From the NCBI GenBank assembly GCA_049642065.1, contig JBAROK010000007.1:2134-66133 (forward strand): DNA of 64,000 bases, given 5' to 3'. The notes under the pieces were generated by a model, which saw nothing but the letters and a program-made list of their open reading frames with translations, did not search any database and was not told the DNA's origin. This document shows, piece after piece, positions 32,701-64,000 of this stretch (positions are counted from its first letter, which is position 1; every line of letters begins with the position of its first letter). A program made the translations under genes and the position numbers. Source of the DNA: Candidatus Omnitrophota bacterium (GTDB taxonomy: Bacteria; Omnitrophota; Gorgyraeia; Tantalellales; Tantalellaceae).

Positions 32701-35700
32701 TGGAGATCCGTGCGTGGTTAGCAGATTGGCGCAAGCAGATGGAAGAAGTAGAGAGCGAAGATATTCCGGATGTTAGCAAGCTCGATGATATCATTCGCAT
32801 CAGGATGAAAGAGCTGAATGCCAGGAAGAAAGAACTTGAAAATAAAATAACAACAATGGAAAAAGAGTCAGGTAAGACTCGCAGGACTTCGACCGAGCAG
32901 CTTGAGAACATACTTAACAAGGATTTTGAGTTCACTGTTAAAGGAGACGGCGAGGTAGACGGCATAAGGCAGATAATAGCCAAGAAAGCCGCTTACAAGG
33001 TTCTCGAGCATATGGATAACTGGCATTCCCGTGTTATGAAATCCGAGGAGTTCGAGAATAAGAGCGTTAAGGCCATAGAAGAGTTCATACAAGAACAGCG
33101 TGAAGAGATGGGCCGCATAATGAAAAGGTACGGTATAACCGAGGAGACAGTGCCCGGTGAAGTAGACGAGCTTAACCGTATGTTCAATTTCTGTGCCATG
33201 CAGGCTACGGTAGAGGCGTCCAAGAGACGGAAACCGCAACTTACAGAGACGCAGCAGCTTATCGCTCTGGAAGCCCAGAGAGAACATGAAACTCAGGAGA
33301 AACATAAAAAGACCCATGTCAGCATCAAGCCTGCTAAACCGAGCCAGAGCAGCGAAACAGAAAAACTTATCGAGAGAATAAATAACGGTGAAAGCATGGA
33401 AGATATCGCTGATGACGCTATCTCTGTGATAGAGGCAATCATAGCGGATAATCAGGAAGAAGAACCCGCACGGGCAAAAGACGAATTCAGTGACCTGGTA
33501 AATCACTCTTATGAGGACGGTCATGCCGTACGTATAGTCGGGGCGATAGAGATAGCTTTCAGTAAGATACAGGATTCAGATGAAACCGAAGAAGCAGCCC
33601 GTAAAACCATGGTGGATGGCATACGTCAGATGCAGAACGTTTTTGATTCTGCTCCGGAACTTACAGGGAACGAAGAAGCCAAAAGACAAGCTTATCATAT
33701 ACAGGATCTGGGTGAATGTGTTCTTGACACGGCGTTCAGGTCAAGGTTCAGGAAGTTCAGTACGCTTTATGACAGCCAGAGAAGGGCAGTAAAAGACGTT
33801 ATCATCAAAGAAACCAGATCGAGAGACGGTATGACAAGAAGCAAGATCGGTCAGATGCCGACCTCTTCCGGTAAAACGATAGCACTTTATACAGGTGCTT
33901 ATATCATGGCCATTAAAGCTCTTAGTAATAGCGGCAAAGAGGAATCCGAAGGTGTGCTTATCACTTCTACGGAAGAGTCCAAGGCAAAGGAAGATGCGAC
34001 GGAAGCTGCCAGAGCCCTGGCGAGGCTTGGTATTCAGGTAGGGTTTATAGGCTCCAGCCCGGAAGGTCAGCCAGTAGGATACCTGTTTGACGTTACTACG
34101 AACCGTCTTGAAAAAGTTGAGAACGATACCAGGGTGTATTCTGAAGCTGTTGTGATATACAGTACGCTGGATAAGTTTGTTCATCGTTCGCAGAACGAAG
34201 AAATGGCGCAGGATCCAAGAGAAAGACAGTTCATATCTCGTAAATGGCGCCTGAGAATGGACGAAGCGGACGTGCCGCTTATATATGACCTTTCGAACCC
34301 GTTCATCGTTTCCAGTACACAGGGAGACCCCAGGTTGCTCCGCAAGATAGACCAGGTTGTCCGTGAACACATAATAGTCAAGGAACTGCGTAAAGAACTG
34401 GGTATAGACGTTTTTGACTCGATGGAGCTGCGAGATAAGCTGGCCAGAAGGGATTTCTTGAAACCTGCTGGTGATCTTACTTCTGAAGAAAGGGCGCAGA
34501 TAGAGCAGAGGATATACGGTGATACGGAGCTCTATAAGACTGACCGGAAAAAGAGAACTGTAACTTTTAACCAGGATGGGTTATATGTCCTGGCCCAACA
34601 GCTTGAGACGCTCGGTGTACCGAGAGATGCTATAAATGCGAACAGGGCGATATACGGCAGACTGGCCGAGACCGCTCTTGCCTCACATCTTTTTGACGAA
34701 AAATACAAACATTATACAGAAATGGTAGTTCGCGGCAAACAGGAAATAGTCCTTCTGGATGAAGGTACGGGCCGGGTTAAGTTCGGCCGGTTGCCATATG
34801 ATCTCCAGGCCGCTATTGAAGCTAAAGAAGACCTTCCGGTAATGCCGGAGGAAGATTCCGATCTTATATACCAGATAGACGGTATCGTTCGTGACAAGGT
34901 ACTGAACCATCCGGGGCTTTACGAGAAGAAAGAGAACGAAAGATTCGTGATGCTGAATTCCCGTGGGCTTCAAGTTATGGAAGAGGCTTTGGTGGAAGCG
35001 GGCAGAAGAGCAGATGACGTGAAACGCGATAAGGCCAAATTCGAAGAACTGGCCGAAAGGGCTCTTGCGGCATCGCTTTTCTATGTGAAAGATAAAGATT
35101 ACAGCGTTATGAAAGTTAACGAAAAAGATGAGATCATCCTCCTTGATGAAGGTACCGGTAAGCCGATGTATGGCAGGAGATTGTCGTATGGTCTTCACGC
35201 CGCGATAGAAGCCAAGGAAGGGCTTGAAGTTAAACCTGAGGGAGTCGTTGTTGCATGGGGAACCCTGAGCGGTTTTCTGGAACAGTCTTTCATCCAGTCT
35301 TTCGGTGGTGTCACGGCGACAAGCGACAGGGATGCTATGATGCAGCTTCATAAACTGGAGACTGTTGATATATTAAGAGGTTTGCGCGACGAAATGTCAA
35401 TAAGGGAATTCAATAGAGCTTATGATGACCTTGAGCCGGAAGAGAGAGCGAAAATAAATACGGTGGTTTTTGAGAGCCGCAGGGAAGAAAAAGATCCGCA
35501 GATATACGCGACCAGGACAAAGAAGGTCAAAGCAGTCTTCCGGGTTGTGATGAGAGAACATAAGAATGAGAATAAAAGGCCCATTATGATAAAGGTGGCT
35601 AATGACGTCCAAGCCCAGGAAATGGCTGCCCTTATAAGGAACGGCCTGAGTGAGAATGCTGACATAGAGCTTCTCAACAAAATGGCACAAAGGCTGTTCA

Positions 35701-38700
35701 ATAAACCATACGCTGAGCTTGACGCGGAACAGCAGAATAAGGTCAACAACATAGAGATTATGACAGCCGCAACGTACGCGGATATAGAACGTATCAAGAA
35801 AAGAGCCGGCCGGGAAGGCCAGATAACCATAGTGACGAACCTCGGTGGAAGGGGTATAGATATAAAACTTACAGCTGAATCTGCAAGGATAGGCGGACTT
35901 TTCGGTATATCCACGTATTTCGATGAACTTTCCGCTTCGGATATACAGTTCAGAGGTCGTGTCGGAAGAAACGGCCGTCCGGGTATGTGGATGGGGTTCT
36001 GGTCCCTTGAGGACAGGGCGTTCCAGAAATATGCAGAAGCTCACCCGGAAGGCGTGCAGATACTTAAAGATATGCTTGCGGCAGTCGAAAAAGATGAGAG
36101 ACAGCCAAGTAAGCATATAGGTGCCGAGCCCATAGTTAAACAGATTGTCGAAGAGATAAGGGAAAGTATCAAGAAAAGGCATATATATGGCAACCGTCAG
36201 CATCAGGAACTTTCTGAATATATAGAAAGACGTAAAGACGCGTTTTTTGGTAAAAGGGATAAGCTTGTATTCAAACTGAGGGATCTCATTGACAAAATAC
36301 AAGAAGAGAAGAAGAAATTAGAGGAAGTTGACCGCAGCATACGCGAGCATGGGGAAGAGTTCATGGACCTTATCGGTGAGTCTGCTCCGGCAATGGACGC
36401 GTCTGCTTCACAGATAATTGAAAGAGTTATGATCGCGTGCGAAATGAACGATACTGTCGGTAAGAACATAACGGACCTGGCAGCGAAAGGCGATGAGATC
36501 GCCAGTAACCTGGTAGATATCATAGGTAGCAGGGAATATATCATTGAGACGATAAGGGAGATGGAAGCCGACAGGAAAAAGCTCATGCTTCCTATAGTGA
36601 AAATGGACGTTTCCTGGAAGAGATTTCTCGCTAAAGCGGGTAATATACAGAAAGACCTTGACCGCTTTATCAGGCATTACGGATGGCGCCAGGCGCTTCT
36701 TCAGATAGATCCGGTAGTTAACCGTGAGGCTATGGTGAAGGAAGCTTACGAATCAGAGTTTGGTAAACCGCATATAGGGTTAAGTATTTTCAAGATGGCT
36801 GTCAGGGCAGTTGTTGTTTTTGGAACACTGTTCGGTGTATCCATTCTTGCGCCTTCGGTACTTGTTGGATTATTTAATGTTATCGGCTTGCCATTTACAG
36901 CGGGATATATATTCCTGCTGGTTGCGGCGACGCTGGTAGCGGTAAAACCGAAGATCGGCCTGTCTGTTTTAACGATGACCGGTTTCTGGGCCATTTTCAA
37001 GAGTCTTTTCAAGGTAATGGACCTACATTATCTTACGGTTAAACTGACATCAGACGCGTTTTCCCTGATGACAAATGACGCTTATCTGGTTTTTCTTACG
37101 GGGCTTGTAAGTGTGGTGTTCCTCGGGGTCACTCTGATGATGCAGAGGAAGTTCTTGAAACAGTTCCAGGAAGTAGACAAGAGCCTGAGGAATTTTGCAC
37201 GTGCTTTTCATGATATTGAAGGTGTAGGGTTTACCCGGGCCATGGTCAAGTTTGTGTTCCAGCAGGTGCTTAGCCTGGTAAATTATATAGCGCCAATGCT
37301 GGCAGGGCTTTGCCTGATCGTAACGGCTGCATTTCCTCCTTTTGTTAGCGGCGCCCTGGTTGTGGCACCTGTTACTGTCGGGATAGGGGCAGCTATAGGC
37401 GCGTTGGGACTTTTGACAACAGCAATAACCATATTAATCAACTGGAGACAGATCAAGGAAAGAGGCGTACACCGTCCCAGTATTCCAGAAAGATATGTTT
37501 CGGTAATAATTGACAGCGTTATCGGATTGACCACTGGTTTCTTTGTTTACACAATGGCTACACAGGTCAATCCGCTTTATATCATATTCGGTACCGCTGC
37601 GGCTGTGCTGCTTTTAATGATTACAAAAAGGAGTGTTTCCAAGGCTTTTGGAACGCACGCGATCCATAAAAAGACTGTTATGAGGGGAATGGCTCTTGCA
37701 CTTCCTCTGACAATAGCTTTGGTGCTTGTGTCACGGGCTATCGGTATGACGACTACCCCGCTTACGGCTGCGGTAGCGCTGGCGTCAGTTCCGTTTTTCA
37801 TGAGTTTAACAGGATATTTGGTTGCACAGTGGTATTCAGCTAAGAGGCTTTCCCAGATAGAGTCGAAAATAACTGGCATTTCCAGGACTAGAAGTTTTGT
37901 GGCTACTGTTTTTGAGCAGAACGTTCTTAATGTCAGACAGTGGGCTCCCGGACTTGGAGCAGCGACTACACTGGTTCTTGGAGTATGGGGGCTCTTAGGC
38001 AAGAGCAGCCTTCTCAATGGTGTGCCGATAACACTGGGAGTGCTCACCGGTCTTTATATCATGTTGCGCATAGCCAGGGAAGTATACAAGAGGCGGTATG
38101 CTAAAAGGGATGTTGCCGAAAAGACCATAAAAGATCTTCGCCTTGCCAGGAACGTTATATCAAAGGATGAGTTCTCTCGGCTCAGAGAAGCGGCTACAGC
38201 GTATAAAGCCGAACGTTTCAATACGGATAATCCGTATCTTCTGGCTGTCACAAAATTGGACGCAGCTATTGAAGGCAATTCAGTGCTTAAAAGGATATTG
38301 AAAGAGGTTACCGCGCACGGTCCTCCCAGCACCGGAAAATGGGATAAAGCCGAACTTAAAAGCTCGATTGAAAAAGTCATATTTTTTGAAAATGCCGTAG
38401 ACTTAAACGGTGATGTGGTCCAGATGGACGAGCAGGGAGAACTTGCTGTTACAGCGTATATATCTCTTTTTGAAGAGTTCAACCTGGTCAGGACATTCCT
38501 TGATAGAGCATATACATCCGCACGTGATCCAGAGAACTGGATGAAAGCCCTCAGATATTCGTTCCTATTTTCTATAGGGTTCCCGCTTCTTGTCGGTGGC
38601 GCTAAAGCCGCATATGTTAAACGTGAACAGGCGGTTGCCAAGCACGAAAGAGAAGTCGCGCAGCAGAAATTACTGCAAGAGATGAGGATGGCTAAGCTGG

Positions 38701-50700: not shown

Positions 50701-53700
50701 GGCTTATAGAGTTTACCAATCATAAAGAGATCACCGACAGATTCTATTATGCGCAGGGGTATATATTCGCTAATAGGGGCCAAAATGACAAGGGTGAAGG
50801 GAGCGGAAACGCTATTGTGATAGAAGCGGATCTCGCGGGTATGCCTATAGTTAACGGTGCGGTCTTAGTATATAAGAATACCGAGATAACGAGCCTGGAA
50901 GAGTTCTCAAATGTTGGAACTCCTGATTATGCCATGTTCTTTAACGAAGCGCTTGAAGAGCTTGCTGCAAGTGGCAACTTGAACAAGATACTCGTTGACC
51001 CCGAAATGGCTTATGATAGAGGCATATGGGGCAGGACCACAGATGGTTCTGCGCTTCTTGAGAAGACCGTGTGGGAAGAGGATGTTATAGGTACTTTTGC
51101 TACGATAATGGCTGAACCTCGTTTTAATGCGACAATGGACCGCATGATTGGTATCTGGGAAGCTTCCGTGTTAAGGGATAGCGGAAGAACCCTTACGCAC
51201 AAGTATGGTCACCAGAAGGTTGACACGCATAAACTTTATGCTGACAGGATATACTCCGAGCTTAAGAAGATGCAGGAGTGGATTGATCAGGTTCGTACAG
51301 GTGAAAAGGAGATGGACTATTTCAGGTTCGAGATGTGGCAGAGACTGATAGCTCTTAAAGTAAGGGCTTGGGAGAGGCTCGCTTACAGGGAGCTTGTTCT
51401 TAAAGAGGGGACACCCGAAAAATGGATGAACGAACGTACCGGGGCAAGCTGGTTCAGGAACGTTGTGCTTTCCTTCAGCAGGAATAATGGGCTGGATATA
51501 GTTTTTAAAGAAGTAACCGGGATGAACGCAGAAGATATTAATCCGGTAAAGAAGGCGACTATTACTGATAGGGAGCGCCCCTTTGGTGAAGAGGTTTCTG
51601 TAGAGGAAGAGGTTTCGTTAGTGCTGACCAGGGAAGACCAGTCTATAACGGTGGACATGAACGCTATGGGTACTACCGATCTTACGAATTCCACGTTCTC
51701 GTTTCTGGTAAACACAAAAGAATCGTTATGGCCGGATATCACGATAATTGCTACAGACGGGTTGGACCGCACAAGGTCCATGAGAGTATCTGCTGAGTCC
51801 GTGAAATACGAGGAATACAGGAAATACCAGAGAGTGGAATTTTCACCGAGTTCCGGGGATCTAAGCCAATATCAGGGAGACGAGGATTTTGATGTTTCTG
51901 ACATAAGAAGTATAAAGGTCGTTTTCAAGAACAGGAGCACTACTCCGGGAAGGCTGGGCGTCAAAGATATAGCGATAGAACGCTCAGGCAGTGCGGTTAG
52001 TGCCACGACCGAGAGCGATGAGAGAGTTATAGCTAAGGGAGAATGGATGTCCGCTTACGATATGGACGGGTATATGTATTATGACCTTAGCGTGAACGGC
52101 GAACCGCGTAATATGGACGGCACGCTTTTAAAAATAAAAGCACAGCTGCCTCATAATGTTGCACGCCCAGGGACAATAGTTTATGTTTCGCTGATAGATG
52201 CCCAGACGAGGGCCAAGAGTGTCGAAGCGGTAGTGGATAAGGACGGGTTTATCACGGTCGAGATAGAAGCCCTGACCAAAGGTAATTTTGATCCGAGAGA
52301 AGTGATGATGCTGAGAGTAGAATCTCCCATGGCGGAACAGGGAACAGAACTTTTCGTATGGGGTAAGATAGCGGCACTGGTCTTTTTCGGGATAATGGTT
52401 TACAGGAAAATAAGCAAATGGCTTAGAGACAAGGCTAAGGGGTCCAAGAAGAGCCGGACAGCTTTAGGCAAGAAAATCGTATCTCACGTGGATGTCAATA
52501 AACATATCCGCGAGAATTTGCCGGAAGGACTTCAAAAGCCAAAGAACATGGATGCCAGGCGCAAAGTCCTGCAGGAGACACTAGAAGCCGGACTGGACGC
52601 TTACCCTGTTTGGTCTAGTGAGCTTTATCCAAGAGTGCAGGCCAGGATAATCGAGATAAAAGATCTTTATGGGAACACGGGTGTCAAAGCGCATCTTGGT
52701 CTTGGCCGCGTATACGGCGAGCCGGTAATATATGTGGATTCATTGTATAAGAACGAGGAAGAGCTCAAGTTGCACGAGCTGTACGAGTTACGTGAATGGA
52801 TAATAAAAGCGGCCGAGCTGGGTCTTACTATTACTCAGGTAAGGATCTGGATACGTGAGAATATGGATGAAGCGCGTACATTGGCTGCTAAGATACACAA
52901 TGAGAACCCGCATAAGGTTGTTGGGCACATGCTGCCGGATACGGATATTATCTATGATACTGAGGATGATGTGATCATAGCCGCAGCTGCAGATCAGCAG
53001 GGCGAGGATCAGGAAGATAATCTTTCAGCGGAGGAAAAAGCCGTAAGGGATCGTGTATTGACAGCGGAGAACAAAGAGGACGTTCTCCTGGCGTTAGGTG
53101 TTGACCAAGTCCGGTTCGCAACTAGGGATATGTTTCAGCTACTGGCTGAGAAGAAGAAAGTAGGAAACCGCTGGGTGGGTGTATCTCTCGAGGAACTTAA
53201 GGATATGGTCATTTTTCTCCATGAAGAGATCGGACTGAGCATATATAAAGGAAAAGGAGTTTCTTTATTGAGCCGTCCGAAACAGACTCTCAGGGAAAAA
53301 GCCGATATCATTAGATCTAATAACGATTTGCCGGAAGAATACAGGGTGAGCATAACAGTAAAAAGGCTTAAGACCAGTCCAGAAAAACTTAGGGTCTTGG
53401 TCGCTGAATTGCGCGCTAAACACCAGGAAGAAGCTGGAACTCCGGCTGAAGAGGAACCGGGAATACTTGCTTCTAAGCTTGCGGAGGAATTAAGAAAATC
53501 CGAAGAGGCTCCTGCTGAAGAGGAACCGGGAATACTTGCTTCGATGCTTGCTGAGGAATTAGGACAACCTGAAAAAGCGGAAGAAGAACCAAAAGAAGCG
53601 GAAGAAGAGCCGATTGAAGAGATAACCAAAGGGGAGGCTAGCAATGATCTTATCGCGATAAGACAGTCGGTCAACGAGATGATCGGTGCCATGAAAGTAC

Positions 53701-56700
53701 TCGCCAGGGGTCTTAACTGGAGAGAGACGCAGCTTAACCAGGCTTTTACTGCCACATCCGAAGATGCCGATGAAAGTAAAATAGAGGCGCTCAGGTTTAC
53801 CTGCGACAATACAGAAGAAGAGGTGGGTGGTATTTTCACGCAGCGTAATAATGTGGACATAGCAGGCAATCTTGAGAATGCAGTTAAAAGAATGCGTTCT
53901 ATAGCTGCTGCGCTCGGTGAAGACAATATCCAGGTGACAGAATTAAACGCCAGAATAAAGATTGCAGTTGGCAATAATGACAATGTAAGAGCAAGAATAA
54001 AAGAGGTGCTTGATCTTATTGCTCTTATTAGAAAAGCGCGTGGTGTTGCCGAAGAATCTAAGGTTGCCGAAGAATTGGCGAAGCTCAAAGCTGAAGAGGA
54101 AGCCGCGGCAGCAAAGCTCAAGGCTGAAGAGGAAGAAGCAGCAAGGCTCAAAGCTGAAGAGGAAGCAGCGGCAGCAAAGCTCAAGGCTGAAGAGGATAGT
54201 CTTGATAGTGAACTTATCCAGAAGGCAGCAGAACTCAGGAATCTCTTGGGTAGCATGCAGAGGTTAGAGCAGATAGATTATGACGCTATAATAGACGACT
54301 ATGAAAAGTCCGTAAGAAAAGAAGATGACACGCTTTCTCCGTATTTGCCGGAAAACAGGGATACTGAGATGGTGAAACAGAAGCGCCATCATGTGCTTGC
54401 TGAGCTGCTTGAAGCTCGTGCGCTTATCGCAAGAATAGAGAATGCTCTGGCTGAAATGTCAGCGGCTAATATAGCGGCAGATCCGGAGAAGATTAAGACG
54501 GTTCTGGCAACTGTTGAAGGTGTTATGAACGACGCCGAAGGAGAGAGTTTCTGGGGCCGCGTGAATGATAAGGCATATAATTACTCAGCTCCCGATGACG
54601 CGTCTAAGGGTTATAGCGAACAGTACGAAAAGGATTACGCAGAAGTAATAGGCGAGCGTGAAGCAAGGCTCAAGGCCGAAGAGGAAGAAGCGGCAAGGCG
54701 TAAAGCTGAAGAGGAAGAAGAAGCAAGACTTAGAGTTGAAGAGGAAGAAAAAGCATTCCTTGAGGATATGAACACTAAGATAGCCAATATTGAAGAGATC
54801 ATCAATCTTCTAAATAGGATTATTGCCGATGCAGAAGAAGAAAAGAGTGAAATAGAAGACATGATCTCCGGTATACCTGAAGAAGGTATAGAAGAGCCGC
54901 AACTAGCAGAAATGCGTACTCAGCTTGACGAGATAGAATTAAGGATAATGGGTCTTCAGAACAGGAATAACGATCTGGAAACTGATCTCGATACTATAGA
55001 AGGTCTGCTCAGGGCAATCGAAGGCACCCCACAGGCCGAACATGAGATGTTCGCTCTTACCGGTGCGAGACTTGGGGATGCAAGGGATCTTAATAAGACT
55101 GCTGATGAAAAAATAGATGAAGCTCTTGAAGCCCTCAAAAGGGCAAGATTGCGTCTTATGGACGAACATATTAAAACGGTAGAAAGGAATGCAGCCGCAC
55201 AGGAAGAAGAAAAGCGGAGAGCTGTTGAAGCTGGAGAACTATTCCTGGGTCCGGAAGGCGAAGTGTTACCGACAGAACCTGCGGAAGAGCTTGAACCGGA
55301 GATAATACTGCCGGAGGATCAAGGAGAAGCTGATGAGCCTGAAATGGTTGAACCAGAGATAGTCGCAGCAGGACCTGGTGGTCCGGATGAACCCGGCGAA
55401 CCCGGCGAAGGCGAAGCCGAAGAAGAACCTGAAGACGAAGATGCCAAGTTTGAAAGGGAAGTTAGGGATGCCGATGATATCATGAAGACGCTCAGGAACC
55501 TGGCCAAGAAGATCAATGGCTGGATGGGCGATCTTGAAGTGGATTTCCAGGACAAAGAGGGTGAAGAAGAGATAAAAGAAGACGAAGAGATCTTCCTGCC
55601 CAGGATCAGGTCCATGGAACCGTGGACTTTCTTTGATAAGAAAAAGGTTGGACAGTACAATTTGAGTAATCTTTACAGGTCCATCCTCATGGCGGGTGTA
55701 ATGGCACTTATGTGTCATATACTTGACAACTGGATGGTTGTAGCATTGCTGCCGTATATCGCAATATTAGTTGTAAAAGGGCTGAGTCTCGAGGAAAAAG
55801 CAGCAAAATGGGAAAAGGGACTGTTACTTGCTTCTTTCTTCCTGACATTACAGTTCTTTATACCGTGGTCTTCTGGAATAAGTCTTGGAACAGTGAGTTT
55901 TTGGCTGCTAGCAGGCACTTTGTTCGCGGATAGCGTGACTCCGCTGGTGAAATATCTCGTGAGATTGTCCAACTTGGATTTCTTTGACAACAAGAAAGGT
56001 CACTCTTTCGGTAACCGTCAGCCGTTCAACTACCAGTGGAACCAGCTAAGGGAACTGACGTCAATCAGAAATACACTGCAACAGATAAGAGAAGAGATAG
56101 AAGCCAAACCGAACGTCCGGGACTGGATATGGATGGATATGAGGCCTATACGTTCTAGGGGTTTAAGAGGTGCTGGTATAGACGGCGAAGATTATGAAGG
56201 CGGTATTGAGGGAAGGACCAATACTTTCGGGGAAGTTATAGACGACGCTATTACAGAACTCGGTGCGATAATATTCGTTGGAAAAGGCAAGGTAGGAATA
56301 ACTCCTGATGAAAATATAGAAACATGGAAAAAGGAATGGGATGAACGTAAGGCACACTACAGGGCACAGAGCCCCAGATCCAATGCGGTAGGCCGCGCTC
56401 TTCTATGGAGCTCACTGTTGTCCGCCAGCATAATCGCTGCAGCAGCATATTATGGTGGGCTTACCCTTATGTCGCTTACGGGAGTTATAACGATAGCCGC
56501 AGTTTTCATGGGCACTCTTATACTGGCCGGGAAGTTGGCCAGGCTTCTTATTAAGAAACAGCTGCTTATAGATATCCCGGCTGACATGAAAAACACGACC
56601 AGAAGGGGTAACAGGCAGATATTCAGTCTCGTAGGAGAAAGAGAAGGACAGCCTTTTACCGGACATCCTTTAAAGGTCTGGGACATATGGAGACATTTGA

Positions 56701-59700
56701 CCCAGAGCGCAGCTGCCAAGAGCATAGAAGTACTTACTGAAGATTTTTCAGGTGCGGAAGATGTTAATAAAGAGACCATGAAAGGTCTGCGCGGGCAGAA
56801 GGATACTGCCGTATCGCGTGGTCCACTGGACAGCATGGCGCTTTCTGAAGCGGAAGGCCTTATAGAAAAGGTAAAACTTGTCGTCAAGACGGCACTTTTC
56901 CTGTCAGCGGTACTGGGCCTGTCATATTTGGCAGGGGTAACCATTTTCGGCGGTTCAGCATGGATATACCAGCTGACGGCCTATGGAAATACCGCGGGCT
57001 GGGATGAGATCTTCAGGCACGGGTTCGCGATAATAAAGGTAGTAAAGAATATAGCTCTCTCGGAAAGCGGAAGCTGGATGACTGTTTTACTTAAGGGCGG
57101 CCCGTTTCTGGGTGTAGGACTTCTTGCGATGATATCAAGCATGAGCCGCAAAGTGCGAGGAAGAGCCAAAGAATTTCTTATGAACGTGGGCGGTGTTCTT
57201 CTCGCTGTCGGTGCCGGTGTAGCGTTTTTAGAGATAGCATCTATAACTCAGCCAATACTGTTAGTAACAGCTTTGGGGCAGTTGATTCTCGGTAGCGTCG
57301 TTCTCGGTAGCTTATGGATATTCGGCCTTAAGTTCTTCGGGTACGATATCGGCCAGTTTGCTAAACTTTATCCGGATGAAGAAGTCGTTACATGGAAAGA
57401 TATACTCAAGAGGTTCGGATGGGCGGTTATATCGGCTAGTTTCATAGTGGGTGTACCGCGGCTTACAGGTCAATCTATAGGTGAAGCTATATTTATCGCT
57501 ACGGGTAACGTGGCTCTGGGGATCAGCCTTGGTACCGCTATTAATGTTATCCTGGCTACTTTTATGGTGTATTCCATGCTCAGGGGTTTCAGCATGTTGA
57601 TAGCCAAGAACAGGTTTAAAGCTATAGCTGTGGACGATAAGCTTTATGCAGGCGACGATGAGCCTGCGCTGGATTCTTCTACCGACAGTTTCATTAAAAC
57701 CTTCTTAGGCGGGAACCGCTATACGGAACGGGAACTAAGGGTAATAGTCAAGGCTAATAAGCTAGGTAAGGAACATCTGGATGAAGGGGACGACCCCGAC
57801 GACAGCAGACGCGATGAAAAAATGATATACGAGAGTATTATGGGTCATGGAGGCCAGCCTTCAGGTGTTGATTATTTCAGCGCTGCGATGAACGCCAGAT
57901 TTGACGAACTTACAGCCGCGCAGCTGTTAAAGCTCATGTCAAGGGCCGCTTTCAAGAAACTTGAAAGAGAAGACAGGATCCCCGAAGCGATGACCAAGAA
58001 CGAACTCGTAGGGTTCCTGGAAAGAGACGGGAATTACCGCGAACAACTGGTTGTTAGGGCACATCTCATGTATGGGGAACTGGACATAGAACAGATACTG
58101 CAGAGGCTGAGCGGAGCCGGGTTCAACGGTGTCAAGACAGAATTAAGGAAGATTAGAGAAGAAGAATTAAGAATATGCAATAAGGCTATCGCAGAAGGCG
58201 AAGATCAGCTGAGCCTGAATGAAAGCGAGATCTACGAGAATATCAAGAACAGGTACCCTGCTCTTATGCCCGAAGAGTTGGTCGAGAAACTGGAGAAATG
58301 GATCAAGATCAGCGAGCATATCAAGCTTTGGGATGTTCAGGATGTTGTAAGAGGGAAGAACCCCGAGATCGATGAGTGGCTGGAAGGCACGAACGCTGAT
58401 GAGCTCAGGCAAGTGATAGATAAGGATCACCTGGAGAAACGTCTTGTGCTCATGTATGATTTTATACCGAAGACCCAGTCGTGGCTCGTTATTATCGGTG
58501 CCAGCTGGGAAGATGAAATAAAACCCTTGGTAAACTCACTGCTTACTCTCAGGTATCCGCTGAAAAAGATGAAGTTCATCTTCGCCGGTGAGACTTGGGA
58601 TGACGGTACGGAAAGGTCCATAAGGGAAGCGCGCCTTAACGCAATGAGAAGGATGCGCGGGCTTATGGGCGAAGTGGTCAAGGGAAGCCTGCCTGAACAG
58701 TTCGAGTTCAGGGGCGCTCCTGTAAGGGAAGAAAACGCGGTGAAGTTAAGAGGTTACAAATGGATGCCGAGGTTTTTCCGTGTCATTATTACGCGTATGT
58801 TCGGTCCATATGTTGAACCGTCGCAGCCGTATACTAAGCCGGGCGCTAACACGTTCGCTCTAAAAGATTCCGATGGCGCTTACGGTATCATATACGATAC
58901 CGAGGATAAACCTGAAGACACTCAGATACTCAAGTTCATACTTGGACTTACAGATGGTATCTCAGAAACAAGGCGCCTGCAGGATGATTTCAAGACGAAA
59001 TATATGAGGACTGAACCCGTGCGTAGCCGCAAGCCCGAGGTAGATGCTCCCCTAAAGGTCAAGGTCCAACATTACAAAAGTTCTATTAATGATGCGGTAA
59101 AAGAATACAACAAGAAGCTTTCCAAGGAAAACAGGATCGTGTCTAATCGGTATAACCTGAAGAGAGGCAGGGTTTTAAAGCGTCACATGAACTGGTTCGC
59201 TACAGAAACTCTTCCCACGTTGTTAGATATCATGCATACCGGTCGCTTACATCTTCTTTCCACAGGTCTTCTTTGGAAAGAAGTGCTGAGCCAATCAAAG
59301 CAGGCTGACAGGATCAAACTCAGAAACCTTTATATAAGCCTTGCGAATATACCTGGGTATGGCCGTCTGGCGACTGACTATTTACTGAGCAACAAACAGA
59401 AGGAAGACGAGTACGCTTTTGTAGAAGGTCTTATATTCGGTGAATTCGAGAGGATCAACGCGCCGAAGAACGGCCAGGGTCGTCTTTCTCAGTCTCGTTC
59501 GGCTGGACTGGCGACGAGCTGGGTTAACGGTGCGTATTTTGAAGGTGAGTACGGCGCGTGGTATAACATGGGCTGGGACGGTTTTCATGCATTGCCGGAT
59601 ACTTTCAAGCCGCTCGGTGGTACTACTGGATGGTTCTGTACCGAGCCCGTAGAAGACATATACGTACAGGAGATTGAAGAAACAAAACCTGAAAAACTTC

Positions 59701-62700
59701 AGGAAATCGGGATCGGCGCAGATGAAAAAATTATAATAGCCGAGCACTATGCCGATAAGAAAAAGCTGCATACCATAGGTGCCTGGGACGAGATGCAGGT
59801 TGCTGAGGACTACATGCTTGGTTTTGTCGGTTGGCTTAACGGGTTAAACATAGCCAGTTTTTACACGCTTACGCCGGAAGACGCTACTTCTACCAGCGGG
59901 CTTACCATTAATACGAGGGCGCTGCAGGTTTCCAGGTGGAATAAAGGTTATATCATAGGTCTTGTAACCGTTGCTTGTAAGTGGAGCGTGCTGAAAGAGG
60001 TTTGGAAGAAGAAGGGCCCATTGGGGATGATATCTTTCCTCGTGGCCACGCTTTCAAGTGCTATACATCCGCTTCTATTCAGGTTCGCGAGAGCTTTTAC
60101 TCTGGTATGGTGTTTGTATTTTGTTCCGGTTAAATGGATAGTATCCATACTGTTGCAGATACCGGTAATCTCAGGGCTGTTCGTAACGTTCGAGAACGCT
60201 ACGGGTCTTTTTGCCGGGCTTACAACCATGCAGAACATGGTCGCCGAGATATTCCCGCAGCTGCTCAATTTTATGGGGCTCGGTTGGGGATGGATCCTGG
60301 GTCCGATGATAGTTATCGTGCCGATACTCCTGTTCAAGTACTTTACCGTAAAGGCCATGTTCAAAGGTATAAACAAGAAACTCGGTCTCAGGAGACAGGA
60401 AGAAGAAATATCCGAAGAGTATATCGATAAGAGCAGGAAAACCAGTGTTGGCGACGTCTTGAAAATGGTGAACTCCGATTCACGTGAAACATACTTTGCT
60501 GAAACTATCCGTGAGACCGCAAGAGATGATGGCGAAAGAAAAGCTGTAGCCAAGAAAGCCGGCGATTTTGTCCAGGGAAGCATGCATGAAGCCCAGATGA
60601 CACTGTTTCAGCTGCAGGACGGCAAATCGGTCATGATGGAACTGTGGGAAAGGGTAGAAATTATACTTAAGGATATGCCGTTCTATATGACAGCGGAAGA
60701 TATGCAGGAGCAGATCGGTAAGAGGCTTTCGGGCCGCGACAAAGCTAATTTTGACCTGTTATGGCCGCTTCTTACGAGACATGATGACGGTACGTACACC
60801 CTTCCGATAGGGGCGGATCTCAGTGACCTGTACCTTAAGGAACTGGCTGATGTATGGGTAAAAGCGCGTCTGGGTGAGGAACTTACTAAAGACGAAAAGA
60901 GCAAGCTCAGGCTGGTCGAACTTTTAACCGACAGCGACATGGATGTATTGTACGCACAGAAATCATATTTTGATCTATTGGGTATGGTCTCGGCGGATAT
61001 GAGATCTGAACTGGAAGCAGCAGCCCGCTCCGGACGCAGGGTTACTACAGAGCAGGCGATGACTATAATATCTCAGGATCCGGTGGAAGAGTTGAGAGTC
61101 AGGATAGCTCTGAGGATAGAACAGGGTGACTATTTTACAGTTAATTTGTTCGAGATGTACCTTAATGATCCCTCTAAGGCAGGACATATCGAGAACAAGG
61201 CCAGAGAGGTTTATTATGGCGACAAGAACAGTAAGATCGTAAAGGACGTACGCGAATATCTTGGCCTTTGCTACGACTGGCAGGATGCGCGCGAGATCAA
61301 AGATACTTCAGTTGAAGAGTTCAAGCTCATGAAGAGAGCCATAGAGACGGGTGACCTTACAGTTGAAGGCCTCATGAGAAAACCGGTCCAGACATGGGTG
61401 ACAAGGATAATAGGGGTTTTCTTCCCGGAGATGAAGACGGTCACATTAAGCCTTATAGCTCCTAGGCTCTGGCTGTTCTATGCAGGGGCTCTTGCATCGA
61501 GTATGCTGGGAATAGTGTTCATGCCGACAATGTCCATATGGTTAATGATACCGGCGTTAATAGGTGTGACCCTGGCCGGAGGCATGCTTGTAACCTTGGC
61601 TGTAATGGCAGTTGTAAATATATATATTAAATCGGCGACAGGCGACGAACGGGCCATCAGGGCTCTTTCGGTCAGGCTTGCCATGCCGAACCTTTTTATA
61701 GATTGTTACCAGACGCTTTATCTTTACGGTAACAAGGTCGCCTGGCAGGAAATAATAAGCGGAAGCCGTGTTGGATACTGGTGGCTTACCGGAAGGTCCG
61801 TAGGCGTGCTTGAGACAGTGTTCAGAAAGAACGCTGCGGCCAAGTTCCATGAAAAAGCAGAGAAGATCAGGGAATCCGAATCCCAGATGGTGGACAGTCT
61901 CTTGGAAGCAAGGCTTAAGTTCCAGACCAAATGGAACTGGGGGTTTATGCTACTGATATTCGTACTCGTTCCGCTGGGATTGAGATCGGATCTCAGGGAC
62001 GTTGTTTTTTCAAATATAGACCATGCGATAACGAACAGTTCGCACCTTATATCCAGTAACCCGGTTGTTCAGGCCATGGTAGTTGCCGGACTTTGTATTG
62101 CCGCAGCACTGCTTGTGGTCGGTCTTATTCACAAGGCTTTCAAGAAATTGGGCGACTGGAGGCAGCCGGAATTTGCAGTTACGCTGGGTATCTCTTCGGA
62201 TGTTTATGACGAGCTTATGGATCTTGACGTTAATATGAAGAAACTTGGGCAGAGAACCGGAATAACCAATTTCGTTCGTATACAGGAAGGCGATAGAGAA
62301 GCCATGATAGAAGAGCTTAAGAGTAAGACTCGCGGCGCAAAATCCGTGCTGGCTTTATTGGACAGCAGGGAGCTTCCTGTAAATCCGCACACGGACGACA
62401 TAGATTTCCAGGAACTTGAAAAGATCATAGGTGCTTTTGCTAAAGAAGCGCAGACCGATATAATCGAACTTATGCATCCGGAACTGACGAAAATGAACGC
62501 AGAAACAGTGAGGAAGATAGGTAATGTTGACCGCCTGAGGTATGTAGTGGGCGTTATGGCTCGCATCATACCCGAAGGTGAGTGTTTTGACCTCAATGAG
62601 AAGAGCATTTACGATATAAGGATAGACAACATATACAATATGCACAGGGTTGATTACACTGAGCAGGCTCGCAGGTACCTTGAAGGTATCAGGAGACAGC

Positions 62701-63335
62701 CGTATGCCCAGGATGATCGCCGGTACCTCGTCACTGCGGTGGACAAGGCGATGGACCTGAAACTCTTGGCTAACTCTATCAGAGAAAGAAGAGAGGCTAT
62801 GGAGGTCATCGGGCGTGACTCAGACCCGGTCAAGGACATAGTGATCGTGAAGAACCAGCATATCGCTTATGACCTGGACAGAGTGCTTAAAGAAACGGAA
62901 CTCGGGGAGTACCTGAGTAAAGACGACATTATCATAGTCGGCGAGAACGAGACGCTGAACGCAGAGGACCTGCTGGGTATGGTAAATGAAAAGACCGGAT
63001 TGAGCCTGCAGCGCAGCCAGATAGCGCTCGGGGCAAAAGAAGGCGTAATAAACGTGGACATGAACAAGGCAGAAGTGCGCGAACTCTTCAGTGAAGGCAA
63101 GAAGGATAGTATGCTCCTTGTACAGATGAAGGGTGGTCTTGCCAGCCAGCTCTACAGGATGATGATAGAGATCGCGGCTAACGGTGACAAAAGAGTAGAA
63201 TGGGCAGGCGATACACTAGAGAAGGTGAAAGGCCTCAAAGTGTACACCTATCTGCCCAAGATGGAGAAGATAGATCTCGAAGCTGAGATAGAGAACTACG
63301 AGAGATACATCAGCGAGATACTAGTGAGAGCGTAA
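26706..63335 (+). CDS. Giant secreted/membrane protein of 12,208 aa, containing a signal peptide, a SecA-like ATPase, polytopic TM blocks, a coiled-coil stalk, YD repeats and a GT2 processive glycosyltransferase domain.
   Basis: 36.6 kb ORF. ATG at 26706 is preceded by GAGG (26694-26697) at ~8 nt spacing and by two promoter-like elements. N-terminal hydrophobic segment [14 protein letters not shown]..VWA. Multiple family motifs recognised (see the domain features). Stop TAA at 63333-63335. Confidence 0.9.
   Translation: [12209 protein letters not shown]
26770..26880 (+). other. N-terminal signal peptide / signal anchor of gene 2.
   Basis: Positively charged KSRHVKFIK followed by [18 protein letters not shown], with a possible AxA-like cleavage at VWA-TG. 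Confidence 0.5.
29030..29525 (+). repeat. Copy 1 of a ~160-aa domain of unknown function duplicated within gene 2.
   Basis: [16 protein letters not shown]...[23 protein letters not shown]...[31 protein letters not shown] aligns with copy 2 at 52465-53000. Confidence 0.55.
33760..36060 (+). other. SecA-like translocase ATPase motor (DEAD-like NBD1, PPXD-flank, NBD2) embedded in gene 2.
   Basis: [25 protein letters not shown] matches SecA EMkTGEGKTLvatLpa[26 protein letters not shown] matches vDEvDSiLIDEAr[37 protein letters not shown] matches iIvDEfTGRtm.GRRwsdGLHQAvEAKEgv. [16 protein letters not shown] matches atIATNMAGRGTDIvL. [31 protein letters not shown] matches GGLhvIgTERHESRRIDnQLRGRsGRQGDpG. 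Confidence 0.65.
34620..35290 (+). repeat. Tandem internal duplication of a ~70-aa SecA segment (the DEGTG...[10 protein letters not shown] region).
   Basis: Copy at ~34620-34910: [54 protein letters not shown]. Copy at ~35010-35290: [55 protein letters not shown]. Confidence 0.55.
36780..38100 (+). other. Polytopic membrane domain (~10-12 predicted TM helices) in gene 2.
   Basis: Consecutive hydrophobic segments: [138 protein letters not shown] and others. Confidence 0.55.
38600..46900 (+). other. Long alpha-helical coiled-coil / fibrous stalk region of gene 2 (roughly 2,800 aa) with internal degenerate repeats.
   Basis: Sustained E/K/R/A/L/Q-rich heptad-like sequence. Internal paralogous stretches include [27 protein letters not shown] (~39010) and [27 protein letters not shown] (~39460). 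Confidence 0.45.
46841..46890 (+). repeat. 15-nt in-frame tandem repeat (x3) encoding [15 protein letters not shown].
   Basis: gctgaggagaaaaaa / gctgaagaaaagaaa / gctgaggagaagaaa. Confidence 0.6.
49230..50760 (+). other. YD/Rhs-type repeat region.
   Basis: Repeated Y/F-x-DG-[ST] and YD..GRL-like units: [66 protein letters not shown] (classic YDxxGRLI). Confidence 0.45.
52465..53000 (+). repeat. Copy 2 of the same ~160-aa domain, immediately after a TM helix.
   Basis: [16 protein letters not shown]...[23 protein letters not shown]...[31 protein letters not shown], preceded by the TM segment [12 protein letters not shown]. Confidence 0.55.
53446..53583 (+). repeat. 69-nt in-frame direct tandem repeat (2 units).
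   Basis: ctgaagaggaaccgggaatacttgcttc... occurs at 53446 and again at 53515. Encodes [23 protein letters not shown] / [23 protein letters not shown]. Confidence 0.75.
54081..54200 (+). repeat. ~30-33-nt in-frame tandem repeat (4 units) encoding KLKAEEE(E)AA(A)A.
   Basis: aagctcaaagctgaagaggaagccgcggcagca and three variants. A related [30 protein letters not shown] block lies at 54655-54760. Confidence 0.7.
55680..57620 (+). other. Second large polytopic membrane block of gene 2 (at least 12 hydrophobic helices).
   Basis: [197 protein letters not shown]. Confidence 0.55.
58440..59960 (+). other. GT2-family processive glycosyltransferase (cellulose/chitin/PNAG-synthase-like) catalytic domain.
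   Basis: [12 protein letters not shown] (GT-A start), ETWDDGT (DDG; 58599-58610), [12 protein letters not shown] (DxD; 58895-58906), [21 protein letters not shown] (ED region; 59804-), [11 protein letters not shown] (QxxRW; 59922-59939). TM helices lie on both sides. Confidence 0.6.
60010..60390 (+). other. TM helix cluster immediately after the GT2 domain.
   Basis: [69 protein letters not shown]. Confidence 0.5.
61400..62150 (+). other. C-terminal TM helix cluster of gene 2.
   Basis: [106 protein letters not shown]. Confidence 0.5.
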
Positions 63336-63422
63336 TGAACAGGCTGCATGCCGCAGGCTCCAGGCCGGGAGCCGGAAGCCTGCGGATGGGGCCTGAAACA
63401 TAAAGGACCTTAACCCAACCTG

Positions 63423-63474
63423 AAAACGTCCTTACTCCCAGGCCTTGCCAAGCTGCCTGGGGTAGGGGCGTTTT
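63423..63474 (+). terminator. Candidate intrinsic terminator of gene 2.
   Basis: Nested hairpin: AAAACG (63423-28)/CGTTTT (63469-74) around CCCAGGC (63437-43)/GCCTGGG (63455-61), ending in a TTTT run. A separate GC-rich 9-bp hairpin lies at 63351-63385 (CCGCAGGCT/AGCCTGCGG) directly after the stop, without a U-tract. Confidence 0.4.
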
Positions 63475-63598
63475 CGTATGTATAGGGAAGACATTTCCCT
63501 GCTTTTCATGTAAGTTATTTATTTTAAATAAGATACAGATAAAGGGCAGACAACGCATAAACCCTTTGTTAAATTAGAAAAAGTAAGAAAATATATGA

Positions 63599-63627
63599 TT
63601 GACCAAGAGCTTATTTATATATATAAT
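63599..63627 (+). promoter_or_regulatory. Sigma70-type promoter of the third gene.
   Basis: TTGACC (63599-604), 17-nt AT-rich spacer, TATAAT (63622-27). Located ~65 nt upstream of the ATG, with an alternating (TA)n region around it. Confidence 0.6.
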
Positions 63628-63680
63628 ATATATAGCCTAAAAGTAAGACGATAAAAAAGGCAGATATACAGTTTTTACAG

Positions 63681-63688
63681 GGGGGAGA
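63681..63688 (+). promoter_or_regulatory. Shine-Dalgarno for the third gene.
   Basis: GGGGGGAG, 4-10 nt upstream of ATG 63692. Confidence 0.5.
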
Positions 63689-63691
63689 TAG

Positions 63692-64000
63692 ATGCTGAAA
63701 CGCATCAAGTTATTTAAAATAGTATCAGTATTACTACTGATCGTGTTCGTCCATGAACAGCTTGGATGGACACAGGATGGTGCGCCTGTATGGGCGGATC
63801 TCGAAAACGTCAGCAACATCCCGTCTGGAGAACTTCCTTCTGAAATAAAGATACCTTACGATATTGGTGAAGTGTGTGATGCTACCACCAACGGTACAAG
63901 CGAAGTTATCATAAATATCCAGGATGCTCATGCATCTCTATCTTCCCAGTATTCCATAGTAAATATACTCGATAACCTTGTATCTAATTATGATGTCAAA
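63692..64000 (+). CDS. Start of a third large gene (3'-truncated by the window edge). Its N-terminus is paralogous to that of the 26706 gene.
   Basis: ATG at 63692 preceded by GGGGGGAG (63681-63688) and by a TTGACC-N17-TATAAT promoter. Signal-peptide-like MLKRIKLFKIVSVLLLIVFV. Conserved block IINIQDAHASLSSQYSIVNILDNLVSNY versus gene 2's VIIQIQDAHASLSAQYSIVKLLDSLVANY. Frame open to the window end. Confidence 0.75.
   Translation, partial: MLKRIKLFKIVSVLLLIVFVHEQLGWTQDGAPVWADLENVSNIPSGELPSEIKIPYDIGEVCDATTNGTSEVIINIQDAHASLSSQYSIVNILDNLVSNYDVK

Follow-up and report, generated by a model that had tools for sequence, protein, structure and literature searches.

Omnitrophota giant proteins are among the longest known. 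The window analysed here, a 64-kb stretch (64,000 nt) of contig JBAROK010000007.1 from a Candidatus Omnitrophota bacterium (assembly GCA_049642065.1), is occupied nearly entirely by two plus-strand open reading frames (ORFs), gene 1 and gene 2, with a third beginning close to its end (Table 1); GC skew is positive throughout. The subject of this report is the last fifth of the 12,209-residue gene 2 protein, for which an original prediction, made from the nucleotide sequence, had proposed a cellulose-synthase-like glycosyltransferase family 2 (GT2) domain between blocks of transmembrane (TM) helices. The gene 2 frame includes position 55680, where the first residues of the conserved C-terminal module are encoded. 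Amino acids (aa) 9659–11809, ~2,150 residues, are best explained as one conserved membrane module with a divergent GT2 core, apparently an intact and very divergent relative of the cellulose, chitin and hyaluronan synthases.

Conserved motifs and GT2 homology

A single ordered set of GT2 motifs is present in gene 2, at 58590–59939 or, counting the whole of the string QVSRWNKG, at 58590–59948. The order and span claimed originally (DDG, DxD, ED and QxxRW at 58599–59939) were borne out, the order also being conserved on alignment with homologues. Two of the four motifs differ in form from that claim. Of the predicted DDG, D10632 is conserved in 17/18 family rows and is accompanied by E10629 (18/18 rows with a residue there); the corresponding columns of the nearest GT2 proteins contain E in 31/31 and D in 30/31. 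The family motif around these residues is AGE-x-W-D, and the remaining DG is not conserved. A literal DxD is absent, its functional equivalent being D10731-T-E10733-D10734, which aligns to D-C-D of BcsA; D10731 and E10733 occur in 19/19 family rows and D-A-E-D in 30–31/31 of the nearest GT2 proteins. The other motifs are equally constant: T, K, P and A of T-K-P-G-A (19/19 family rows, 29–31/31 nearest GT2 proteins), G-G-T at aa 10971–10973 (18/18, 29–31/31), E-D of V-A-E-D (18/18, 31/31) and Q, R and W of QxxRW (18/18, 30–31/31). Also essentially invariant in the family are W-D (11027–11028), V-x-E-D (11032–11035) and Q..RW.KG (11074–11081). These positions are thus near-invariant in 18–19 family rows that share just 26–58% identity overall, a pattern expected under selection for catalysis, and on this ground the GT2 module is apparently catalytically competent.

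Homology to GT2 enzymes was traced through intermediate sequences. A phmmer search of 5.8 billion sequences returned six Omnitrophota/Aureabacteria fragments, followed by Pfam-annotated GT2 proteins at E 1e-6 to 1e-3; the latter carry PF13632, PF13641 and PF00535, several of them together with MshEN, a domain that binds cyclic di-GMP (c-di-GMP). By BLASTP, one of these proteins (P0008) aligned in two collinear pieces covering both halves of the GT domain, and sub-threshold matches to PF13632 were found in 6/9 homologous C-half segments (best E 1.8e-4). When compared with canonical GT2 proteins by hhalign, the window sequence plus Omnitrophota homologues scored a probability of 99.2% (E 1e-19), and the 20-member family profile one of 99.5% (E 3.5e-23 over 286 columns, aa 10562–11124); the reversed-sequence control gave E 0.27. 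The canonical relatives in turn match BcsA structures in the PDB (4hg6, 5ej1 and 7lby, E ~1e-15) and hyaluronan synthase (HAS; 8smm, 1.5e-5), and their best NCBIfam matches are CelA (BcsA) and PgaC_IcaA, below the cut-offs. Against Escherichia coli BcsA, the joint profile gave E 4.5e-17, with the BcsA motifs DDG, HAKAGN, DCD, FFCGS, TED and QRxRW paired with the corresponding columns, in an alignment running from the TM helices that precede the GT domain to those past QxxRW. Chitin synthase and hyaluronan synthase also turn up among the fold and PDB matches. As judged from these profile comparisons, GT2 homology is clear by way of the intermediates.

Architecture, predicted structure and distribution of the module

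The module consists of an upstream TM block, a helical linker, the catalytic domain and two downstream TM blocks separated by a soluble insert (Table 1). Helix counts were derived from hydropathy, charge-free runs and AlphaFold2 helices and are approximate. The 'at least 12' upstream and 'at least 8' downstream helices of the original prediction fall within the ranges found, ~11–13 and ~7–9 (the latter at aa 11093–11220, 11588–11641, 11743–11763 and 11781–11809), but are not firm lower bounds.

An AlphaFold2 model of aa 10150–11235, built from a 51-row alignment, reached a mean predicted local distance difference test (pLDDT) of 85 and a predicted template modelling score (pTM) of 0.86. It is a confident prediction of one single assembly, with strands in a GT-A-like order. 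In order, it contains five TM helices, a helical linker of ~270 aa, a beta/alpha core, a long helix bearing QVSRW and five to six further helices. Core strands lie at model residues 441–446, 473–480, 517–522, 577–582, 773–780, 826–829 and 900–909, and strands occur where the motifs require them, with WLVIIG as strand 1, MKFIFAGE as strand 2 and YGIIYD ending in the DxD equivalent. QVSRW is part of a helix (919–941) directly before the hydrophobic helices at 944–1071. With this pTM, and with the TM blocks co-conserved, the GT domain is predicted to pack as one unit with the helices on both sides. The five modelled helices of the upstream block have pLDDT 80–97, and the block is kept from its first residues in the homologues P0025, P0016, P0020 and P0024. 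Linker helices (model residues 170–437, mostly pLDDT >90) are conserved in the family, and the linker has no match in Pfam or among PDB sequences.

The three insertions in the catalytic domain differ in character. Insertion 1 is modelled at pLDDT 44–67 (model residues ~505–560) and is short or missing in several homologues, and insertion 3 differs in length among them. Insertion 2 is modelled as helices at pLDDT 94–98 with conserved blocks in every family member and is without a canonical GT2 counterpart.

Downstream, TM block 2 (model helices 944–1071) is conserved in all family members and its first part aligns to the canonical GT2 TM region after QxxRW. The ~360-aa soluble insert that follows is homologous only in the closest relatives (P0025, P0029 and P0003); its AlphaFold2 helices have pLDDT ~80–88, and Foldseek found no fold match for it. 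The spacing of TM blocks 2 and 3 is ~50–60 aa in several homologues (e.g. P0004, P0002 and P0020) and up to a few hundred in others. Since the two blocks nearly adjoin in the former, sequence comparison points to the GT domain, TM block 2 and TM block 3 as one conserved core. TM block 3 is conserved in 16 homologues and modelled with moderate confidence, the model of aa 11085–12209 as a whole having pLDDT 66.7 and pTM 0.53. After its first two helices comes the conserved G-Y-W-W-(L/R)-T-(G/P)-R loop, within an element (aa 11647–11698) of consensus ER.iRA..vR.AMPN.FI..Y..LYL.GN..AW.E...G.R.GYWW(L/R)T(G/P)R; in this model, which lacks the GT domain, the loop has pLDDT <50. Gating loops lie over the active site in BcsA (FxVTxK) and hyaluronan synthase (WGTR), and the element recalls these and is, speculatively, a candidate gating-loop-like element. 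Foldseek matches of the downstream model were meaningless transporter and coiled-coil hits, with no PilZ-like or other regulatory fold, and Pfam and NCBIfam scans of 55680–63332 found no PilZ, MshEN, GGDEF or other known domain; the regulatory domain that the original prediction suggested looking for nearby was thus not found.

Lys/Arg-rich flanks adjoin the linker, the GT domain, the soluble insert, the conserved loop and the C-terminal tail. By the positive-inside rule, all large soluble parts of the module would therefore be cytoplasmic, which is where a nucleotide-sugar-dependent enzyme must be. This pattern speaks against a synthase at the end of an external fibre, one of the placements (tip or base of a long fibre) originally suggested.

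Table 1. Genes, module segments and motifs in the window
Feature	Residues (aa)	Window position	Strand	Description or basis
Gene 1		65–26272	+	ORF of 8,735 aa
Gene 2		26706–63335	+	Uninterrupted ORF of 12,209 aa; 'Archaeovorin type' giant, synthase module C-terminal
Third ORF		start near 63693	+	Open at window end
Upstream TM block	9659–10300	55680–57605	+	~11–13 hydrophobic helices, two soluble loops of 100–145 aa
Linker domain	10301–10589	57606–58472	+	All-alpha; between last upstream TM helix and first GT strand
Catalytic domain and interface helix	10590–11092	58473–59981	+	GT-A type GT2 with three insertions; hhalign, AlphaFold2
E10629-T-W-D10632	10629–10632	58590–58601	+	Nucleotide-binding 'DDG' equivalent; aligns to BcsA 'DDGG'
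ETWDDGT		58590–58610		
Insertion 1	~10650–10705	58653–58820	+	Variable, partly low confidence; hhalign gap against canonical GT2
T-K-P-G-A	10710–10714	58833–58847	+	Equivalent of BcsA H-A-K-A-G-N; alignment to BcsA 'HAKAGN'
IIYDTEDKP		58887–58913		
D10731-T-E10733-D10734	10731–10734	58896–58907	+	Metal-binding DxD equivalent, end of strand beta-4; aligns to BcsA 'DCD'
Insertion 2	~10770–10918	59013–59459	+	All-helical subdomain of ~150 aa between DxD strand and next core strand
L-G-G-T-T-G-W	10970–10976	59613–59633	+	Equivalent of BcsA F-F-C-G-S; alignment to BcsA
LGGTTGWF		59613–59636		
Insertion 3	~10985–11024	59658–59777	+	Variable, helical, before W-D / V-A-E-D block; gap against P0008 (BLASTP, hhalign)
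V-A-E11034-D11035	11032–11035	59799–59810	+	'TED' equivalent, predicted catalytic base; aligns to BcsA 'VTED'
VAEDYMLG		59799–59822		
Q11074-V-S-R11077-W11078	11074–11078	59925–59939	+	QxxRW, on helix leading into membrane; AlphaFold2 helix, alignment
QVSRWNKG		59925–59948		
TM block 2	11093–11220	59982–60365	+	5–6 predicted helices, of which 3–4 clearly hydrophobic
Soluble insert	11225–11585	60378–61460	+	Helical, lineage-specific, outside conserved core
TM block 3	11588–11809	61467–62132	+	Two helices, conserved loop, two helices
Most conserved downstream element	11647–11698	61644–61799	+	Alignment of 17 sequences
C-terminal tail	11810–12209	62133–63332	+	Soluble; context, not part of the synthase

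The distribution of the module was examined at the protein and locus levels. Close homologues all come from metagenome-assembled genomes (MAGs) of Omnitrophota, Auribacterota, Makaraimicrobium or UBP3, or from MAGs labelled 'uncultured Planctomycetia', and the nearest protein fragment is a marine Global Ocean Sampling (GOS) sequence (P0003, 91% identical). By BLASTP, the TM block, linker, GT domain and downstream TM blocks are conserved across proteins of 3–7 kaa (thousand amino acids). When 1.84 billion representatives were searched exhaustively with the profile, 26 proteins scored E<1e-30, mostly of 3–7 kaa, and ~1,100 ordinary GT2 proteins were matched in two stretches because of the insertions in the GT domain of the module. 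With the downstream 985 aa as query, a word-indexed search for homologues gave P0029 alone. Among 22 related genomic loci from GTDB representatives, the best 74% identical to the window, the module is in every case part of a long ORF, which in 19/22 is open to the upstream edge of the locus. The module is restricted to giant ORFs of Omnitrophota-like bacteria. In two loci, L020 (8150–13728) and L022 (7895–10196), a stop codon lies just ~410–620 codons upstream of the match, unlike in the other loci; the gene may be truly shorter there, or a frameshift or assembly error may be the cause.

Comparison with known synthases and alternative explanations

With the cellulose synthase BcsA of bacteria (PDB 4hg6, 4p00, 7lby and 9fnn) and PgaC, the PNAG synthase related to it, the module shares the motif order D/E..D, K-x-G/A, D-x-D/E, G-G/C-T/S, (T/A)ED, QxxRW, a QxxRW helix at the membrane surface and TM helices flanking the GT domain. 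It differs from them in having ~11–13 upstream TM helices (four in BcsA, two in PgaC), a ~290-aa helical domain between the last of these and the GT domain, catalytic-domain insertions of ~55, ~150 and ~40 aa, downstream helices split by a 360-aa insert, and its location at the end of a polypeptide of 12,209 aa. Unlike BcsA, it is without PilZ, a BcsB-like partner or a bcs or pga operon; neither bcsB nor any other bcs gene lies in the window, which contains only the two giant genes and the first part of another, and related loci likewise continue with a giant-protein start module as the next gene. TIGR03030 (CelA), TIGR03937 and the Pfam models miss the module, and it does not classify as PRK11498/CelA. 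The nearest canonical relatives by sequence are GT2 proteins with MshEN (T2SSE_N; P0008–P0015, e.g. a Paenibacillus dendritiformis 'glycosyltransferase family 2 protein'), which share its particular motif forms: E..D for DDG, T-K-P-x-A, Y-D-A-E-D-x-P, P-L-G-G-T, W-D..N/Q-V-x-E-D and Q-x-S-R-W-I-K-G-Y. These relatives are stand-alone proteins of 450–800 aa with a c-di-GMP-binding domain and no insertions, whereas the module has insertions and neither MshEN nor PilZ, the c-di-GMP-binding domains that regulate its nearest relatives. Being uncharacterised themselves, they do not reveal which sugar the module uses. Plant CesA proteins have a plant-conserved region between the first Asp motif and DxD and a class-specific region between DxD and TED, together with an N-terminal zinc-binding domain, and form rosettes. 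The module may be likened, by analogy only, to these synthase-type GT2 enzymes, whose two family-specific insertions lie at comparable places.

Taken together, these data suggest that the module is probably a divergent, catalytically competent membrane synthase of the BcsA/PgaC type, located C-terminally in a giant protein of the 'Archaeovorin type'. In such an enzyme the GT-A domain would lie at the cytoplasmic face, with E10629/D10632, K10711 and D10731/E10733/D10734 as the residues that bind a divalent cation and the nucleotide sugar. D11035 of V-A-E-D would serve as the base, W11078 of Q-V-S-R-W, on its helix at the membrane surface, would hold the growing chain end, and the flanking TM helices would form the exit path of the product from the cytoplasm. 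The product would probably be a glycan made at the cytoplasmic face and passed through the module's own helices. Of the processive polysaccharide-synthase layout originally proposed, the GT2 homology, the conserved motifs and the TM helices on both sides stand; activity, processivity, export through its own helices and cytoplasmic orientation are properties that we infer from sequence.

Several results weigh against this interpretation. Hidden Markov model (HMM) scans of the window's own sequence, both the 2,551-aa C-terminal part and the GT part, gave no relevant Pfam match even at E<=10, including for Glycos_transf_2 and Cellulose_synt, the check proposed with the original prediction, so that the gathering scores of PF00535, PF13632 and PF13641 are not reached; the NCBIfam scan of the same two parts returned nothing relevant. 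The family profile (A2) by itself yielded noise against PDB sequences, e.g. CHIP at E~0.5. The catalytic fold is broken up by three large insertions, and in the family the DxD equivalent is D-x-E-(D/N), with the second D replaced by E; since the nearest ordinary GT2 proteins carry D-A-E-D, this replacement is a subfamily trait and not decay. Homology of G-Y-W-W-L-T-G-R to the 'Y-W-E-K-T-x-H' end of canonical GT2 proteins, the gating-loop equivalent, was unsupported (hhalign E 0.21). Comparison with BcsA at the level of structure, also envisaged originally, was not significant: Foldseek searches of PDB and BFVD with the aa 10150–11235 model found no match at the cut-off of E<=0.001. The top-ranked match was nonetheless BcsA (9b8v_E, E 0.11, probability 0.18), with BcsA 9fnn_A at probability 0.94, hyaluronan synthase 8smn_A at probability 0.89 (TM-score 0.40 by target), and chitin synthase Chs1 and TarP also ranked high. 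GT-A domains such as those of K4CP, 6p61 and 3bcv matched at probability 0.95–0.98 over ~160–170 columns with a root-mean-square deviation (rmsd) of 3.7–6 Å, the local GT-A matches at probability 0.94–0.98 all having E>0.1. Global superposition on BcsA and HAS was poor (TM-score 0.27–0.40 by target length, rmsd ~18–20 Å). Finally, genes for export partners that would serve outer-membrane passage are absent from the window.

The last points bear on the main alternative, which we regard as possible, if rather unlikely, namely an active membrane GT2 enzyme that exports no polymer and adds one or a few sugars to a membrane lipid, a lipid-linked carrier, a short oligosaccharide (cf. NodC) or the giant protein itself, with the helices as mere anchors. 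QxxRW-type motifs occur also in ceramide and diacylglycerol glucosyltransferases and in NodC, and since QxxRW-type GT2 enzymes thus include non-exporting ones, processivity and export are not deducible from the motifs alone. One of the nearest GT2 proteins (P0007) also matches PF13506 (Glyco_transf_21), and the lack of gating-loop homology, of a significant global match to BcsA or HAS and of export partners in the window would fit such an enzyme. Against this, the nearest relatives score best with CelA and PgaC_IcaA and not with lipid glycosyltransferase models, and the joint profile follows BcsA through the TM helices that flank the GT domain. Some 20 conserved TM helices, co-conserved with the GT domain, far exceed what anchoring needs, and the pTM of the model indicates that helices and GT domain form one packed unit.

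A degenerate GT2 remnant that has lost catalysis and persists as a structural piece or membrane anchor at the end of the giant protein would account for the extreme divergence, the missing curated HMM match, the three insertions and the D-x-E form, and the SecA-like domain of such giants is likewise highly divergent (bioRxiv 10.1101/2023.11.21.568195). We nevertheless consider it improbable, as the nucleotide, metal and acceptor motif residues stay invariant in family rows that have otherwise diverged widely, and D-A-E-D is shared with the nearest ordinary GT2 proteins. Least credible of all, with a probability close to nil, is a chance pattern of motifs in a very long protein that is no glycosyltransferase. 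Short motifs are indeed frequent in the 12,209 aa (49 D.D, 72 ED) and a direct Pfam match is lacking, but an ordered DDG..DxD..ED..QxxRW set with plausible spacings arose in just 7/2000 residue shuffles, and both giant proteins together (20,944 aa) have a single Q..RW, gene 1 having no QxxRW. The hhalign score relative to its reversed control and the motif-for-motif alignment with BcsA stand against chance, and the profile comparisons refute it.

If the module is a BcsA/PgaC-type synthase, many Omnitrophota giants would carry a conserved and apparently active enzyme of this type within ~20 TM helices near their C-terminal end, which offers a concrete biochemical hypothesis for these proteins: glycan synthesis and probably export. 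The compact homologue type (P0002 or P0004, about 1,000 aa) would be a tractable target for expression and assay. The module would also be an extreme case of divergence and interruption in a synthase-type GT2 enzyme with every catalytic motif kept. It has been seen in part by database annotation: the fragment P0001 carries the name 'glycosyltransferase', and a related 4,677-aa Omnitrophota protein (P0038) has the Joint Genome Institute (JGI) name 'cellulose synthase/PNAG synthase-like glycosyltransferase'. The giant-protein papers reported HMM-detected GT1 and GT5 (starch-synthase-like) domains and excluded TM regions from structure prediction (bioRxiv 10.1101/2023.11.21.568195; Nielsen 2026, bioRxiv 10.64898/2026.06.07.730766). 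In the main text of both, a GT2 synthase module embedded in the membrane goes unmentioned, as does the term 'cellulose synthase', and a full-text literature search combining Omnitrophota and 'cellulose synthase' gave no relevant result. The module is invisible to the published catalogues because these rely on HMM matches and omit TM regions from structure prediction.

The module is best explained as the last portion of a giant multi-enzyme protein anchored in the inner membrane. It is consistent with a C-terminal part of the gene 2 protein that is anchored in this membrane and faces the cytoplasm, and its likely topology agrees with the 'inner-membrane-anchored cytoplasmic-domain' class discussed in bioRxiv 10.64898/2026.06.07.730766. 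A bolder extension, which we think unlikely, places the module at the delivering end of a membrane-anchored assembly line of covalently joined parts, in which the enzymes of the tandem giants feed sugar precursors to a terminal synthase that spins a dedicated extracellular polysaccharide. The polymer could then be, for example, a cell covering or a matrix for attachment, serving the host-dependent or predatory lifestyle of Omnitrophota, and giant proteins would build surface polymers instead of, or besides, degrading prey walls. The insertions and the G-Y-W-W-x-T-x-R loop might in that event replace c-di-GMP control by regulation within the giant protein.

Other parts of gene 2 and neighbouring genes

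The two giant genes resemble the 'Archaeovorin-type': their products are 8,735 and 12,209 aa long and have, between them, many TM helices, a SecA-like domain that is divergent, and pyruvate phosphate dikinase (PPDK), phosphoglycerate-mutase and radical-SAM domains. Such a make-up, and the high divergence of the SecA-like domain, were described for Omnitrophota giant proteins by West-Roberts et al. 2023 (bioRxiv 10.1101/2023.11.21.568195). The SecA-like domain that had been predicted in gene 2 was recovered at aa ~2378–3058, with SecA_PP_bind (E 2e-20), P-loop_SecA (E 1.9e-13) and a weak DEAD match, ~7,500 residues N-terminal of the synthase module. It is followed by a separate TM block, the two together spanning aa 2378–3790 (window 33837–38075); that block (aa 3369–3790) has about ten helices and lies ~5,900 residues upstream of the module. 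No Pfam match was found in aa ~3800–9650, a region with numerous helical-looking segments rich in Glu, Lys and Ala. The suggestion that the synthase acts at the tip or base of a fibre, by way of a coiled-coil stalk and a link to SecA, found nothing in its favour beyond the shared polypeptide.

Gene 2 also contains an internal duplication, aa ~777–848 (29034–29250) and aa ~8592–8671 (52479–52718), which share 43% identity over 84 aa (E 2e-15) and the pattern VN.(Y/H)IREN(I/L)PEGL ... TG(L/V)KAHLGLGR.YGEPV; the second copy comes after a lone TM helix at aa 8547–8565. The soluble tail of gene 2 is homologous to the C-terminus of gene 1, in that gene 1 aa 8345–8735 (~25097–26269) align to gene 2 aa 11823–12209 (62172–63332) as a ~390-aa soluble domain (BLASTP E 1e-25, 27% identity over 421 columns). 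The same domain, for which no Pfam or fold match was found, forms the C-terminus of P0023, P0024, P0025, P0026 and P0029 and ends in ...NYERY(I/V)xE(I/V)L(V/T)(R/K)A. Because gene 1 has the tail and no QxxRW, the tail is independent of the GT2 module.

In gene 1, the HMM scan identified PPDK_N, PEP-utilizers, AAA_18, Metalloenzyme/iPGM_N, ARMT1-like phosphatase, DUF4922, radical SAM and HD domains, with weak LigT-like matches in addition; no obvious nucleotide-sugar-forming enzyme is among these enzyme domains. Downstream of gene 2, the remaining sequence (63336–64000) comprises a ~355-bp intergenic region and the start of the third plus-strand ORF. The N-terminus of the latter, a signal-anchor-like helix followed by ...IINIQDAHASLSSQYSIVNILDNLVSNYDV, is paralogous to that of gene 2 (...VIIQIQDAHASLSAQYSIVKLLDSLVANYELNF). 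In six related loci (L001, L006, L011, L014, L019 and L021), the giant ORF with the GT2 domain is followed, 290–640 bp past its stop codon, by a homologue of this start module, and the tandem arrangement of giant genes therefore appears to be conserved.

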